Shown here in pieces: positions 4,453 to 23,172 of a stretch of DNA of 64,000 nt (positions are counted from its first letter, which is position 1; every line of letters begins with the position of its first letter). Below the pieces are notes generated by a model. The model did not search any database. It had not been told where the DNA came from and worked only from the letters and a program-made list of their open reading frames with translations. Origin of the DNA: Candidatus Bathyarchaeota archaeon (GTDB lineage: Archaea > Thermoproteota > Bathyarchaeia > Bathyarchaeales > Bathycorpusculaceae); contig CAWHDT010000005.1 in NCBI GenBank assembly GCA_963828195.1, forward strand, positions 256,001 through 320,000, given 5' to 3'. The position numbers and the translations under genes are program-made.

Positions 4453-4467
4453 CGAAACGCTTATATT
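4453..4467 (+). promoter_or_regulatory. Putative BRE/TATA promoter of the aromatic leader and operon
   Basis: CGAAACGC-TTATATT about 40 nt upstream of the leader ATG (4507). Confidence 0.5.
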
Positions 4468-4506
4468 TTCTTGATAACGTCTCATTGAACAAGGGTTCGA
4501 AGCTAC

Positions 4507-4590
4507 ATGTCCAATTGCAAAAGCCACAAAGGAAACAGTTCCGCACAATCGCTCAGCTTCGACTACTATTTTTACGGTTATTTTTCTTAA
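4507..4590 (+). CDS. Putative Phe/Tyr-rich leader (attenuator) peptide, 27 aa
   Basis: MSNCKSHKGNSSAQSLSFDYYFYGYFS*; 7 of the last 10 sense codons are Phe/Tyr; lies directly upstream of the shikimate/Tyr operon. Confidence 0.75.
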   Translation: MSNCKSHKGNSSAQSLSFDYYFYGYFS

Positions 4591-4628
4591 GCCCAGAACT
4601 GAAAAGTTTTTTAAGCAAGGTTCTGGGC
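4591..4628 (+). promoter_or_regulatory. Leader hairpin (candidate attenuator/antiterminator) enclosing a U6 tract
   Basis: GCCCAGAAC (4591-4599) and GTTCTGGGC (4620-4628) form a perfect inverted repeat starting at the base after the leader stop; TTTTTT at 4607-4612. Confidence 0.65.
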
Positions 4629-4646
4629 AAGGCACGGGTGTAAGCG

Positions 4647-5894
4647 ATGGCGAAGAATGATTCTGGCAGAAGAATTGTTGTTAAATTCGGGGGGTCTAGC
4701 CTGGCGGATCATGAGCGGCTCTTGAAAGCGGCGCTTGCCGTGGTCAACGAAGCCAAGGCGGGCACACAGGTCGCTGTTGTAGTTTCTGCTATGGGTAAAA
4801 CAACCGATGTCCTTATGACGACGGCGAAAAACGCTTCCCACGGGAAACTGGAGAAAAAAGACTTGGACGATATCCTCTCTATGGGCGAGCGTACCAGCAT
4901 AAGAATTTTCGCTGCTGCATTGAAAAACAACGGTGCCGAATCCTGCTACTTCGACCCCATCGACAGCAACTGGCCGATAATTACTGATTCAGCATTCCAA
5001 AACGCCAACCCAATACTGAAGGACTGCGAAAAAAATATTCGCGAATGCATACTGCCAGTCATGGAGAAAAGCGTCATACCTGTGGTGGCGGGGTTCCTCG
5101 GCAAAACAAAGGACGGCAAAATCACCACTCTTGGAAGAGGCGGCAGCGACACAACAGCGTTTATCTTAGCTGAAGCCCTGAACGCTGACGAAATCGTCTT
5201 AGTCACCGACGCAGACGGCATAATGTCAGGCGACCCAAAAATCGTGTCGAACCCAGAGCGCCTAAAAGAAATCGACGTTAACACTATAGTGGGGTTAGCT
5301 GATTCAGGCGCCAAATTTATCCACAGCAAAGCCCTAAAGTACAAACCCAAAAACATCAACGTCCGAGTAATCAACCACGCGCACGGCAACTTAACTAAAG
5401 AAGGCACCGTAATCACGGGCGCATTAGCAACGGAACTGGACGCGGAAATAGCTCATCCTTTTCCAGTTGCTGAAATAACGGTGGTCGGAAACGGCATCTC
5501 CGCAAACCCCCAAATCATCCAGGAAATGGTGGAGAAAACCAAACAGCACTCGCAGCTTTTGGGCATGTCGATGAACACAAACTCAATCATACTTTATGCT
5601 TCTCAAGAAAAAACCTTGGACGCACTCTTCAACGACATCCACAATATCACAAAAAGCAACAGGGAAACCATAGCGATGGCGGTCAAAAAAGACTTGGTTT
5701 TCATAAAAACAAGCGGGGTCGGCTTAGAGGAAACCCATGGCATAATTGGGAAAATCAGCGAAGACCTCAGATTGAACGGCATAAACATTTCAGGCATACT
5801 GACCATAACGTCAAGTATTTTGCTTTTTGTAGATTGGAATGAGCGTGAAAAAGCGCTTGCGCTAATTAAAAACTCATTAAGGACTTCGAAATAA
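4647..5894 (+). CDS. lysC: Aspartate kinase with C-terminal ACT domains
   Basis: VVKFGGSS, VVVSAMG, TTLGRGGSDTTA and TDADGIMSGDP motifs. Confidence 0.9.
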   Translation: MAKNDSGRRIVVKFGGSSLADHERLLKAALAVVNEAKAGTQVAVVVSAMGKTTDVLMTTAKNASHGKLEKKDLDDILSMGERTSIRIFAAALKNNGAESCYFDPIDSNWPIITDSAFQNANPILKDCEKNIRECILPVMEKSVIPVVAGFLGKTKDGKITTLGRGGSDTTAFILAEALNADEIVLVTDADGIMSGDPKIVSNPERLKEIDVNTIVGLADSGAKFIHSKALKYKPKNINVRVINHAHGNLTKEGTVITGALATELDAEIAHPFPVAEITVVGNGISANPQIIQEMVEKTKQHSQLLGMSMNTNSIILYASQEKTLDALFNDIHNITKSNRETIAMAVKKDLVFIKTSGVGLEETHGIIGKISEDLRLNGINISGILTITSSILLFVDWNEREKALALIKNSLRTSK

Positions 5895-5910
5895 GCAAAG
5901 GTGACGAAAC

Positions 5911-20724: not shown

Positions 20725-20736
20725 GTAGGGGACGAT

Positions 20737-21249
20737 TTATTCGTCTATTCTTACTGTTTTTGCTCCCCTTGCCAATGCTGTTATGCCTGTTCTTGCAAGT
20801 TCAATGACGCCTGTAGTGTGCATTAGGTTTAGGAACGCGTCAAGTTTGTCGGGTGTTCCAGTGATTTCAACTGTTAAGCTGTCGGTTGCGACGTCGATGA
20901 TTCGTCCTCTGAAGACTTCTACGCAGTTTATTATGTCGGAGCGGTCTTTGGGGGTCGGCACGTTAACTTTTATCAAAGCTAGTTCCCGCATCACAAAGTG
21001 ACCCGGTTCTAGCTCCTCTACTTTCAAGACGTCAATGAGTTTTGCTAGTTGCTTGACAACTTGTTCAAGTGTTTTTTCGTCAGCGTTTACTGTGATTGTC
21101 ATGCGTGAGGTTTCGATGTTTTCGCTGGGGCCGACTGTTATGCTTTCGATGTTGAAGTTTCTGCGTCTGAACAAGTTGGCTACGCCATGAAGAACACCTG
21201 GCTTGTTTTCCACGAGCACAGATATTACTTTGGTTTGTTCGGTCTCCAT
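20737..21249 (-). CDS. ilvH: Acetolactate synthase small (regulatory) subunit
   Basis: VENKPGVL, FRRRNFNIESI, KQLAKLIDV and ELARTG motifs. Confidence 0.95.
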   Translation of the reverse strand: METEQTKVISVLVENKPGVLHGVANLFRRRNFNIESITVGPSENIETSRMTITVNADEKTLEQVVKQLAKLIDVLKVEELEPGHFVMRELALIKVNVPTPKDRSDIINCVEVFRGRIIDVATDSLTVEITGTPDKLDAFLNLMHTTGVIELARTGITALARGAKTVRIDE

Positions 21250-22961
21250 TAGTAGTCACCTCTCTGTTGTGGTAAACCGCAGCCTGGGGGCACAAATGGA
21301 ACAACATCATGTTCTGAGCCAATAGGCACATCGATTACCGTTGTAACTTCACTGCTTAGCGCTGTCTTAACTGCTTTTTCGAACTCTTCAAGCGAGTTTA
21401 CTCGTAGACCTTGTGCGCCATATGCTTCTGCAAGCTTTACGAAGTCAGGAGTTTTTCCCAAGTTAACTGCCATGTAACGGCGTTTATAGAGCATTCTCTG
21501 CCACTGCGCCACCATTCCCAGCACCGAATTGTTTAGCACGATAACTATGACAGGAATCTTTTCAGCTACTGAACAGGCAAGTTCTTGCTCAGTCATTAAG
21601 AAACTGCCGTCGCCAGCTATGTCTACGACGGGTCTATCTGGGCAAGCAACTTTTGCTCCTATAGCTGCTGGGAAGCCAAAGCCCATTGTTCCAAGTCCAC
21701 CGGAGCTGATGAAGGTTCGCGGTTTTAACGCTTGGAAGTATAGGGCTGACCACATTTGGTTTTGCCCGACTTCAGTGGTGACAATGGTGTCTGCTGGCAG
21801 CAGTTTTCTCAGCTCTATCAGTAAGGCTTTTGGCACCAATTCTTTGGGTCTTTCCTTTAGCAATGGGCTCAGCTGCTCTTTAGCTTCCTTAACACGCTTT
21901 GACCACGCGCTAACTTTCATCCTGGGTAGCTTCTTTACAACGGCAGCATGCAACAGCTTTAACGAAACTTTTGCATCTCCGACGATTGGAACGTCAACTT
22001 CAATGTTCTTGCCGATTTCTGCCGCGTCAATGTCTATGTGAATTTTTTTGGCGTTAGGAGCAAAAGTGTCCAAGTTTGCTGTTGCACGGTCAGAAAATCT
22101 TGTTCCAATAGCTAACAGCACGTCAGCTTCACCAATCAGCCTGTTTGCAGCTGGGTTTCCATGCATTCCAATGCAGCCAACTGACAGCGGGTGGCATTCG
22201 GGAAAAGCACCTTTGCCCATGAAAGTTGTTGCAACTGGCGACATCAACAAATCCGACATCTGCATTAATTCGTCGGACGCATTAGAAGAAATGACTCCGC
22301 CGCCAGCCAGTATCATTGGTTCAACCGCCTCAGCCAGTAAATTGGCTGCTTCGCTGATTTTATCTAAATCTGGATTAATCTTGGGGTTGTAGCCTCGTGC
22401 TTCAATTTTCTCTATGATTCCTGTCGCTACGTCAGCGATGTCAGATTGGATGTTTTTTGGTATGTCAATTAGGACTGGCCCGGGTCTGCCTGAAGACGCT
22501 ATGTAGAATGCGGCGTTAACCATTGGTTGAATTTCAGCGATGGTGCGCGGCTGATAATTATGCTTGGTGATCGGCGTCGTGATGCCAATGATGTCTGCCT
22601 CTTGAAAGGCATCTTTGCCAATCATATAGGATGAGTTTACGCTTGTGGATGGAACCTGACCTGTTATAGCTATCATCGGCGAGGAATCCATGTACGCGTT
22701 CGCTATACCCGTTACTAAGTTTGTAGCGCCCGGTCCAGATGTTGCTAAGCAGACTCCTACTCGTCCGCTAGCTCGCGCGTAGCCTTCTGCTGCGTGGGCT
22801 GCCCCCTGCTCGTGTCTAGCGAGTACATGTCTAATTTTCTCGTTGCCGCATAAAGCGTCGTAGACCGGCAGTATTGCTCCGCCCAAGATTCCGAATATAA
22901 CATCTACGTTTTGTTGCTCAAGGGATTCTACAAGTGCCTTTGCACCAGACATTTTGGTCAT
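21249..22961 (-). CDS. ilvB: Acetolactate synthase large subunit
   Basis: RHEQGAAH, TSGPGATN, SGGLGTMG and GDGSF...NN motifs; AGGAGAGG SD. Confidence 0.95.
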   Translation of the reverse strand: MTKMSGAKALVESLEQQNVDVIFGILGGAILPVYDALCGNEKIRHVLARHEQGAAHAAEGYARASGRVGVCLATSGPGATNLVTGIANAYMDSSPMIAITGQVPSTSVNSSYMIGKDAFQEADIIGITTPITKHNYQPRTIAEIQPMVNAAFYIASSGRPGPVLIDIPKNIQSDIADVATGIIEKIEARGYNPKINPDLDKISEAANLLAEAVEPMILAGGGVISSNASDELMQMSDLLMSPVATTFMGKGAFPECHPLSVGCIGMHGNPAANRLIGEADVLLAIGTRFSDRATANLDTFAPNAKKIHIDIDAAEIGKNIEVDVPIVGDAKVSLKLLHAAVVKKLPRMKVSAWSKRVKEAKEQLSPLLKERPKELVPKALLIELRKLLPADTIVTTEVGQNQMWSALYFQALKPRTFISSGGLGTMGFGFPAAIGAKVACPDRPVVDIAGDGSFLMTEQELACSVAEKIPVIVIVLNNSVLGMVAQWQRMLYKRRYMAVNLGKTPDFVKLAEAYGAQGLRVNSLEEFEKAVKTALSSEVTTVIDVPIGSEHDVVPFVPPGCGLPQQRGDY

Positions 22962-23057
22962 TTCATTGCCTCTCCTTTTTGAAATTTATACTCTCGTCTA
23001 CAGAAGGATTGATTTGCAAATTTTTCAACGGATGCTTCAGAGGGTTCCCTGGACAGT

Positions 23058-23108
23058 TCAAAGAATAAGTACCCGACGATTCCAGCTATTGAGGTGACGA
23101 TCCCTCAT
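23058..23108 (-). CDS. Putative branched-chain amino acid leader (attenuator) peptide, 16 aa
   Basis: GAGGA SD, then ATG...GTA CTT ATT CTT TGA, giving MRDRHLNSWNRRVLIL*; stop lies about 96 nt before ilvB. Confidence 0.7.
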   Translation of the reverse strand: MRDRHLNSWNRRVLIL

Positions 23109-23155
23109 CTTAATTCCTCTTGAAATCCACGTTCCCTAAAAATAGATAATTGTAC

Positions 23156-23172
23156 AAATAAAAGGCTTACGG
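23156..23172 (-). promoter_or_regulatory. Putative BRE/TATA promoter of the ilv leader
   Basis: Minus strand CCGTAAGCC-TTTTATTT about 50 nt upstream of the leader ATG. Confidence 0.45.

Follow-up and report, generated by a model that had tools for sequence, protein, structure and literature searches.

Leader open reading frames before amino acid operons in Bathyarchaeia as candidate sensors of tRNA charging, with a putative +1 frameshift module

In the bacterial attenuators of the pheL, ilvL/ivbL, leuL, hisL and trpL type, a leader open reading frame (ORF) carrying codons for the end product of the pathway lies between the promoter and the operon, and charged tRNA is sensed by the ribosome that translates it. 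How archaea match amino acid synthesis to supply is, to our knowledge, poorly known, and control by leader ORFs of the bacterial type is not an established mechanism in them. Here, we analyzed a 64,000-nucleotide stretch from a Candidatus Bathyarchaeota archaeon (referred to as the window; contig C5:256001-320000 in a 2.83-Mb assembly of 9 contigs), in which a short upstream ORF (uORF) precedes each of two biosynthetic operons, one for aromatic amino acids and the other for branched-chain amino acids (ilv-leu). A first-pass annotation of this DNA had proposed that both uORFs encode leader peptides acting by attenuation of the pheL, ilvL and leuL type. We consider it rather probable that both are translated leader ORFs that report tRNA charging, as two different devices: one built on a hairpin in the aromatic leader and the other on a +1 frameshift in the ilv leader.

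The +1 frameshift site of the gene for release factor 2 (RF2; prfB) has a Shine-Dalgarno (SD)-like element 3 nt before the P-site codon. The ilv leader shares this geometry, along with a short zero frame that closes just past the site, an A-site codon that would be decoded slowly and serve as the sensor, and a useful +1 frame without a start of its own. Unlike in RF2, where the slow codon is a stop codon, the presumed slow codon in the leaders described here is a sense codon for the amino acid that the pathway makes (Leu, Val, His or Trp), and the predicted sensor is charged tRNA rather than the release factor. The output also differs, being a biosynthetic operon, reached through a TrpE fusion or through termination beside the ilvB or hisG start. 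Furthermore, the ribosomes are archaeal, and some of the sites lack good re-pairing in the +1 frame. For RF2, translation of the short zero frame is stated to suffice for a sensor/effector circuit in an excerpt of a 2016 review (PMC5009743).

Ketolide-induced frameshifting in the ermC leader is the nearest precedent. According to the same excerpt, it lets ribosomes into the spacer and turns on the downstream gene (PMC5009743). The trigger there is an antibiotic, while here it is predicted to be tRNA charging, and the hairpin that hides the ribosome-binding site of ermC unfolds, while no such sequestration was found here by folding. The excerpt also presents antizyme +1 frameshifting as the sensor and effector of a metabolic feedback loop (PMC5009743), the double role that we propose here for the frameshift; antizyme differs in being eukaryotic, in shifting at a stop codon, in having a polyamine ligand and in exerting negative feedback through the shifted product.

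Compared with the bacterial attenuators, the Phe-rich end of the aromatic leader is reminiscent of pheL. In contrast, the organism is an archaeon, no terminator/antiterminator alternative was found, and in place of a run of cognate codons, the ilv, his and trp leaders have a fixed module with one or two of them. In Methanothermobacter, archaeal trp genes are subject to TrpY-type repression at TGTACA boxes, and similar boxes flank the trp TATA box in the genomes studied here. This is a protein-based transcriptional control, which would add to the leaders and does not explain them. Searches against the leader, T-box and riboswitch families of Rfam gave only a tRNA reaching the gathering score in the window, and in the two leaders only chance-level matches to small nucleolar and long noncoding RNAs (E >1).

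The ilv leader and the module shared with his and trp

Both uORFs lie where the first-pass annotation had placed them, each between the first gene of its operon and a box resembling a B recognition element (BRE) and a TATA box, and these boxes are conserved in relatives. Upstream of ilvB, the following features were recognized.

23155-23165, minus strand: TATA-like box of the ilv-leu operon, CCTTTTATTTG, read from the sequence; putative promoter element
23116-23120, minus strand: Shine-Dalgarno sequence AGAGG, read from the sequence, 7 nt before the leader ATG
23058-23108, minus strand: zero-frame ilv leader ORF of 16 codons, translated as MRDRHLNSWNRRVLIL and a stop
23105-23091, minus strand: module 1, AGG GAT CGT CAC CTC, with the Leu codon at 23093-23091
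23084-23070, minus strand: module 2, TGG AAT CGT CGG GTA, with the Val codon at 23072-23070
22958-23104, minus strand: ORF in the +1 frame of the leader, 147 nt, without a start codon until its second-last codon

The leader was detected in 29 of 30 ilvB loci, comprising the window, 22 loci of the same genus and 6 of the 7 from other families; in the single locus without it, ilvB lies behind another gene. Within the genus, the TATA-like box is conserved in all 23 leaders and the SD is kept as A[AG]GAGG (GGAGG in other families). From the leader ATG onwards, about 40 nt are nearly invariant among the 23 genus members, even at third codon positions, and the stop is found at the identical position in every one of them. 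The leaders of other families differ, although they retain start-AGG-GAT, CGGGTAC and CGT-TTC-CTC. Across the ilv leaders, the sensor codon is Leu (in one case Ile) and that of the second module is Val (GTA). The motif occurs once in the window's own genome.

The end of the uORF behaves differently. The first-pass annotation had based the sensing of branched-chain amino acids on the terminal VLIL, and this tail is present in only 7 of the 23 same-genus leaders; the others end in VLVL, VQLF, VQLL, VHFY, VLFC, VFIL, VPRN and more, with variation in the three codons before the stop. What is conserved are the single Leu and Val codons within the RF2-like module and the +1 frame that leads to ilvB. 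Both uORFs being conserved and bearing codons for products of their pathways, the sensing of charged-tRNA supply through the behavior of ribosomes on a leader ORF is supported as the best interpretation, while the VLIL tail, on which it had been based at ilv, is variable.

In the window, the +1 frame is opened by a TGA overlapping the leader ATG and closed by a TGA overlapping the ilvB ATG (ATGA). From the TGA at the leader ATG, this frame remains open to between -5 and +20 nt of the ilvB ATG in all 29 leaders, against 1.8 expected from shuffled sequences, while frames 0 and +2 both close early and never reach the ilvB start (0/29). Upstream of position -30, it contains no ATG, GTG or TTG in 21 of the 29. 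At the level of the class, 13 of 39 ilvB loci (leaving out L259, which is too short) have start-RGG-KAT-NNN-NTT followed by an Ile, Val or Leu codon, the sensor codons being ATC, ATT, GTC, CTT or CTC.

In the window and its closest relatives, the zero-frame leader ends in CTT TGA (window 23061-23069, minus strand), the slippery codon plus stop of the RF2 site; no SD-like element is located 3 nt upstream of it. As for the conserved nucleotides of the ilv and his leaders, a DNA operator, a T-box-like specifier, a tRNA T-arm mimic, a k-turn and a 16S 3'-end mimic were considered by eye only, and were dropped because the frame analysis explained the conservation as dual coding plus the SD-like element. 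Sequestration of the ilvB and hisG ribosome-binding sites by the leaders was also discarded, since accessibility was the same as in shuffled leaders (unpaired probability from the SD to the ATG of 0.49 vs 0.51 for ilv and 0.43 vs 0.42 for his).

The uORFs before the his and trp operons carry cognate codons too. In the window's own genome, these leaders are found outside the window.

Contig C7:163139-163310: hisG leader, starting ATG AGG GAT TGC GTT CAT
Contig C8:192681-192731: trpE leader, starting ATG GGG AAT CGC CTT TGG

In the his leaders (loci L067-L094), the sensor codon is His, either CAT or CAC, in 28 of 28. Each leader contains two copies of a 12-nt module, the second of which is read in frame only once a +1 shift has taken place at the first His codon; the +1 frame then runs through this second module, again ending in His, and stops 0 to 3 codons later. 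The frame that would be reached after two +1 shifts, that is, the +2 frame, is open to between -10 and +11 of the hisG ATG in 28/28 leaders, compared with 1.8 expected from shuffles.

The trp leaders (L061 and L177-L251; L197, from a genome with trpE in pieces, was left out of the counts) have TGG as codon 6 in 23 of the 24 loci at the order level, and in 22 of these 24, trpE is in the +1 frame of the leader. No ATG, GTG or TTG occurs in the trpE frame between its opening and the conserved domain in 15 of the 24 loci, and at 8 loci, nothing opens that frame other than the TGA at the leader ATG. The single species without TGG in its trp leader (L186) has the leader ATG in frame with trpE, as a natural fusion. 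We regard it as a natural control, showing that the ATG of the trp leader would be the start of TrpE, and as indirect support for translation into the +1 frame. Across the class, the leader plan with a Trp codon and with trpE in the +1 frame is kept at 44 of 46 loci, and at 21 of 46, the trpE frame is devoid of a start codon. Some 60 to 110 nt upstream of the leader ATG, TGTACA-like boxes flank the trp TATA-like box (L061, L177-L199); they resemble TrpY-type operators, which suggests a transcriptional layer on top of the trp leader.

All three kinds of leader follow a common plan: SD, start codon, RGG RAT, one unconstrained codon, a further codon that is mostly NTT, and the cognate codon. The codon after the module is always that of the pathway's own amino acid (Leu, Val or Ile; His; Trp). 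The 3' end of the 16S rRNA reads GGATCACCTCCT and is complementary to the RGG-RAT element, by a pairing drawn by eye that leaves one rRNA base bulged. In every module, the SD-like AGGGAT (TGGAAT in ilv module 2) is followed by 3 nt and then by the P-site codon. Re-pairing of that codon in the +1 frame is good for CTT-T (trp), partial for GTT-C (his) and CGG-G (ilv Val), with two positions out of three, and poor for CAC-C (ilv Leu in this genus). Genome-wide, the only biosynthetic genes preceded by an exact intergenic start-RGG-RAT are those of ilv and his, and a relaxed version of the pattern adds trp. A scan for start-RGG-RAY followed by a long alternative frame returned only ilv and trp before biosynthetic genes, plus one extra match in an integrase-like region; its SD filter missed his.

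Given these features, we propose that the 16-codon zero-frame ORF of the ilv leader would be the entry to a programmed +1 frameshift of the RF2 (prfB) type. With enough Leu- and Val-tRNA, ribosomes would read the zero frame and stop at codon 17, 96 nt before ilvB. An empty A site at CTC or GTA, aided by the SD-like pairing, would instead favor a +1 shift, and the shifted ribosome would translate the start-less 147-nt frame and stop on the ilvB ATG (ATGA). Termination-reinitiation could then bring ribosomes to ilvB while the leader stays translated. Excerpts of two studies describe a stop that overlaps or nearly touches the next start as a requirement of archaeal termination-reinitiation coupling (PMC6728339, PMC10666635). 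At his, the same module with a His codon would require two successive shifts before hisG, and at trp, where the module carries a Trp codon, the +1 frame would be TrpE itself.

Extending this to the whole class, we are inclined to think that the trp, his and ilv/leu operons of Bathyarchaeia, and possibly the aromatic ones, are controlled by programmed +1 frameshifting that senses charged tRNA. The arrangement would amount, in our somewhat favored interpretation, to a sense-codon version of RF2 autoregulation, in which a hungry cognate codon diverts ribosomes into a frame that either encodes the first enzyme or leads up to it.

The aromatic leader and its hairpins

The leader of the aromatic operon has a different organization, with the features listed below.

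4452-4469, plus strand: BRE/TATA-like box of the aromatic operon, CCGAAACGCTTATATTTT, read from the sequence; putative promoter, from its consensus only
4507-4590, plus strand: aromatic leader ORF of 27 codons, MSNCKSHKGNSSAQSLSFDYYFYGYFS and a stop, from the ORF list and translation
4494-4503, plus strand: 5' arm of hairpin P1, GGTTCGAAGC, from RNAalifold; directly 5' of the uORF ATG and overlapping the likely ribosome-binding site
4556-4563, plus strand: 3' arm of hairpin P1, GCTTCGAC, from RNAalifold; covers the first Phe codon of the run
4591-4628, plus strand: hairpin P2, with arms GCCCAGAAC (4591-4599) and GTTCTGGGC (4620-4628), from sequence and RNAalifold
4636-4649, plus strand: Shine-Dalgarno-like GGGTG and the ATG of aspartate kinase, read from the sequence, 7-8 nt 3' of P2

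A BRE/TATA-like box and an SD-like element precede the uORF, and the core of the box (GCTTATAT) is present in 23 of 24 same-genus upstream regions, the 24th (L046) ending at a contig edge. We used the aspartate kinase that begins the operon as the query in 41 genomes (the own genome, 24 of the genus and 16 of the order). All 27 loci with a kinase at least 50% identical, namely 24 genus loci (window included) and 3 from two other families, have the uORF 44-77 nt upstream of the kinase. Three weaker kinase matches (37-48% identity) are paralogues behind another gene, and no uORF was seen there. A second scan, with one genome per species and an alignment of these kinases as the query, kept 80 loci, of which 62 bear the leader, defined by at least 5 aromatic residues in the last 14 and at most 90 nt to the kinase start. 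The other 18 are L109, L148, L173, L175, L176 and 13 Hadarchaeales-labelled loci (ca. 40% identity); L109 does bear a leader, which was mis-picked and hence not counted, while L148 is without one. Conservation in relatives, the lack of which the first-pass annotation had named as refuting its proposal, was found for both uORFs.

In the window, the run of Phe and Tyr occupies codons 18-26 (4558-4584). Among the 62 leaders, aromatic residues (Phe, Tyr or Trp) make up 473 of 744 positions (64%) in the last 12 codons, against 69 of 723 (10%) in the 12 codons before this tail, and the last aromatic codon is always 0 to 2 codons ahead of the stop (62/62). The N-terminal half, on the other hand, varies freely. 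The tails fall into 56 distinct sequences, in which each of the four synonymous codons occurs (TTT 118, TTC 95, TAT 175 and TAC 73). Such varied tails and mixed codons indicate selection on codon identity, and not on a peptide or a nucleotide motif. At this operon, then, the end-product codons at the end of the uORF were borne out. The lack of Trp that had been remarked upon applies to the window's own leader, while 12 of the 62 related tails contain Trp. Judged from these comparisons of sequence, the aromatic leader is a genuine, conserved and textbook-looking cognate-codon leader peptide.

We also scanned the 6745 short intergenic ORFs of the own genome for amino acid runs. The top candidates were poly-T or poly-A low-complexity stretches, and the aromatic leader came out below rank 50. 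Among candidates rich in W, M, I, H or Y, those that were followed up precede non-biosynthetic genes, as read from translations with no family search; by eye, the gene downstream of one of them resembles the signal-recognition GTPase.

Hairpin P1 consists of 7 pairs in an RNAalifold consensus of 22 family-level leaders, with changes that are wobble compatible and none two-sided; its 3' arm corresponds to the Ser-Phe-Asp codons that open the aromatic run. P2 starts on the first base after the uORF stop, and its loop has an A-run and a T6 (4607-4612). A two-sided change is seen in 1 of 16 pairs within the family, the rest being invariant or wobble only (RNAalifold, 22 leaders). Of the 62 related leaders, 58 have a hairpin starting no more than 3 nt from the stop, with a median z score against shuffled sequences of -3.2 (z < -2 in 49 of 62). 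The sequence of this hairpin varies between lineages, and its position is kept.

According to RNAalifold on the 22 leaders, these are two independent hairpins without mutually exclusive pairing, and inspection, short of an exhaustive search of suboptimal structures, gave the same picture. Two possible switches were dropped. One was an alternative pairing of P1 with P2, for which only 4-5 bp were possible by eye. The other was an anti-SD switch, in which the freed 3' arm of P2 would hide the ribosome-binding site of the kinase: the unpaired probability from the SD to the ATG was 0.56 in the aromatic leader and 0.54 with the 5' arm of the hairpin blocked, and this blocking lowered accessibility in only 6 of 62 leaders.

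We suggest that when Phe- or Tyr-tRNA is short, ribosomes would dwell on the last codons or slip on the T-runs, and would thereby occupy or invade the 5' arm of the hairpin, whereas with good supply, they would terminate and leave, and the hairpin would re-form. The codon run and the position of the hairpin are observed, while an effect of the hairpin on the first gene would have to be supposed. For this operon, support is good for the sensor but not for the output step.

Competing explanations

Several observations weigh against the interpretation given above. At the class level, 18 of 39 ilvB loci have no long ORF ending at ilvB, and in at least some of these another gene lies upstream. At the Leu module of the ilv leader, the P-site CAC re-pairs in the +1 frame at one of three positions only, which makes the exact shift site in the window uncertain; sister lineages use NTT at this place. 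The ribosome-binding sites of ilvB and hisG are not predicted to be hidden, so that the benefit of translating up to the start would rest on coupling. Similarly, that of the aspartate kinase is not sequestered by thermodynamic folding, the aromatic leader yielded no alternative pairing, and alternative frames through its hairpin are barely above chance (50/62 vs 40.4 expected). In this genus, the his +2 frame has a GTG inside the presumed SD, which might serve as a direct start, while three other families have TGA at that position. Finally, the relatives are not independent, and the expectations based on shuffling overstate the significance of all these counts.

The bacterial-type transcription attenuation originally envisaged for both operons, with a stalled ribosome choosing between antiterminator and terminator and transcription stopping at a T-tract, would agree with the succession of promoter, leader ORF with cognate codons, hairpin and first gene. 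Archaeal polymerases terminate at oligo-T, and the window has the T6 in the loop of P2, where T4-T7 runs are present in most genus members; T4-T5 also follows the hairpin in some other lineages. However, no T-run is found 3' of the hairpin in this genus, two of its members lack even the loop T-run, and the two hairpins fold independently of each other. The polarity is also wrong for a terminator, given that stalling early in the run would not touch the hairpin, while a ribosome at the stop would open it. At ilv, attenuation leaves the +1 frame ending on the ilvB ATG unexplained, and the cognate tail that it requires is not conserved. We consider it improbable. The earlier interpretation was thus right in spirit; its mechanism was wrong for ilv and is unproven for the aromatic operon. 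A somewhat less improbable, still doubtful, possibility is that the aromatic leader frameshifts as well: when the A site holds a hungry Tyr or Phe codon, tRNA-Phe would slip on a T-run, for instance in TAT TTT TAC. Located 6-9 nt downstream, the hairpin might stimulate the shift, and the ribosome would then pass the stop, melt the hairpin and terminate beside the kinase start. In the window, the stop of the -1 frame precedes the kinase ATG by 3 nt and that of the +1 frame follows it by 11 nt; 6-9 nt separate the last Phe codon from the hairpin, as is usual for stimulators of -1 frameshifting. Through the hairpin, the +2 frame is open in 29 of 62 leaders against 17.8 expected from shuffles, an excess that, like that for either frame, is small and comes from related sequences. 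Moreover, the direction of the usable frame differs between clades: the window's clade has mostly a -1 frame ending within ca. 10-17 nt of the kinase start and the sister SFEY-type clade mostly a +1 frame ending near it, in a comparison in which some of the kinase starts were mis-picked. Several lineages close both alternative frames inside or before the hairpin.

For the ilv, his and trp leaders, the conserved nucleotides could instead be an RNA or DNA site for a regulator (protein, tRNA or small RNA), with the frames being incidental. This would account for conservation at the nucleotide level that includes third codon positions, and for the direct repeats (GGGATCGTC twice in the ilv leaders of relatives, and the 12-nt repeat of his). 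Small hairpins lie around the start codon and, in the his leader, show changes from family to family that compensate each other (by eye), and the TGTACA boxes around the trp TATA box imply that protein regulators act there too. Nevertheless, a regulator site explains neither the start-less frame that is open through 130-280 nt of unconserved spacer up to the main start in 29/29 and 28/28 leaders, nor a trpE without its own start codon in 15/24 and 21/46 loci. The cognate codon always follows the module, the trp leader is fused in frame in one species, and no Rfam family matched; we find such a site very unlikely. Even less credit can be given to the idea that the long alternative frames are translated independently from noncanonical or rare starts, as constitutive coupling uORFs or small proteins with no frameshift. 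Some ATG, GTG or TTG does occur in the long frame in 8 of 29 ilv and in 28 of 28 his leaders, and in this genus a GTG with an upstream GGTG lies ahead of the his long frame. On the other side, 21 of 29 ilv leaders have no start there, their frame being closed upstream by the TGA at the leader ATG. A TGA immediately upstream also closes the his frame in three other families, the long frames show no conservation of their peptide sequence, and the trp case is left unexplained.

Genomic setting and significance

The remaining features of the window are as follows; protein-coding genes were assigned by NCBIfam matches and tRNA genes were located with ARAGORN.

4647-15405, plus strand: aromatic operon
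4647-5894, plus strand: aspartate kinase, first gene of the aromatic operon
15495-22961, minus strand: ilvB-ilvH-leuC-leuD-leuB-leuA-pheA operon
53231-53308, plus strand: tRNA-Pro (CGG), the sole RNA gene found in the window by Rfam or ARAGORN

The aromatic operon comprises aspartate kinase, ADH synthase, dehydroquinate (DHQ) synthase II, aroD, aroE, an archaeal shikimate kinase, aroA, aroC, chorismate mutase, an aminotransferase, tyrA (prephenate dehydrogenase) and a glutamine amidotransferase. The archaeal route to dehydroquinate, which depends on aspartate semialdehyde, runs through ADH synthase and DHQ synthase II, and an aspartate kinase at the head of the operon fits this route. A second paralogue of the kinase, 39% identical and without a leader, is present elsewhere in the genome. 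The gene content of both operons is as the first-pass annotation had described it, with the addition of pheA (prephenate dehydratase; 15495-16307, minus strand), which had gone unmentioned. It is the last gene of the ilv-leu operon and lies outside the convergent aromatic operon; therefore, Phe synthesis would be coexpressed with the branched-chain genes.

The related public contigs come from metagenome-assembled genomes of soil, peat and termite gut. Several families of the same order have small genomes (1.1-1.9 Mb) that are nonetheless 90-99% complete. With the queries used, neither ilvB, hisG and trpE nor the aromatic-operon kinase was matched in them, which suggests amino acid auxotrophy in the genomes searched. 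A motif search of the own genome also found three identical copies of a stretch with ATGAGGGATCTGG (C1:5178, C1:442892 and C5:742992), probably a repeated mobile element.

Text searches of the literature on leader peptides or attenuation in archaea, on frameshift control of amino acid operons and on frameshifting in Bathyarchaeia returned no description of either device, which does not prove these to be unpublished. For hungry-codon frameshifting that yields products specific to starvation, the excerpted 2016 review states that "no examples are known", and it regards the frameshifting at pheL as incidental (PMC5009743), and an excerpt of a 2021 review counts one case of -1 frameshifting in Archaea (PMC8211752). 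Frameshift-based sensing before a branched-chain operon seems not to have been described before for such operons.

If the proposed mechanism is true, hungry-codon frameshifting would for the first time be seen in a natural regulatory role, and archaeal cellular genes would have their first conserved +1 frameshift, adding a new logic to gene regulation. It would also account for the start-less or truncated appearance of trpE in many of these genomes, a point of importance for annotation; gene callers likely truncate or split trpE in many genomes of Bathyarchaeia. The module, made up of an SD-like element, a spacer, a slippery codon and a sensor codon, would be a small programmable part for synthetic biology, and reporters can test it directly. 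For the Bathyarchaeia themselves, it would mean that an uncultured class, widespread in soils and sediments, uses a portable translational sensor of amino acids.

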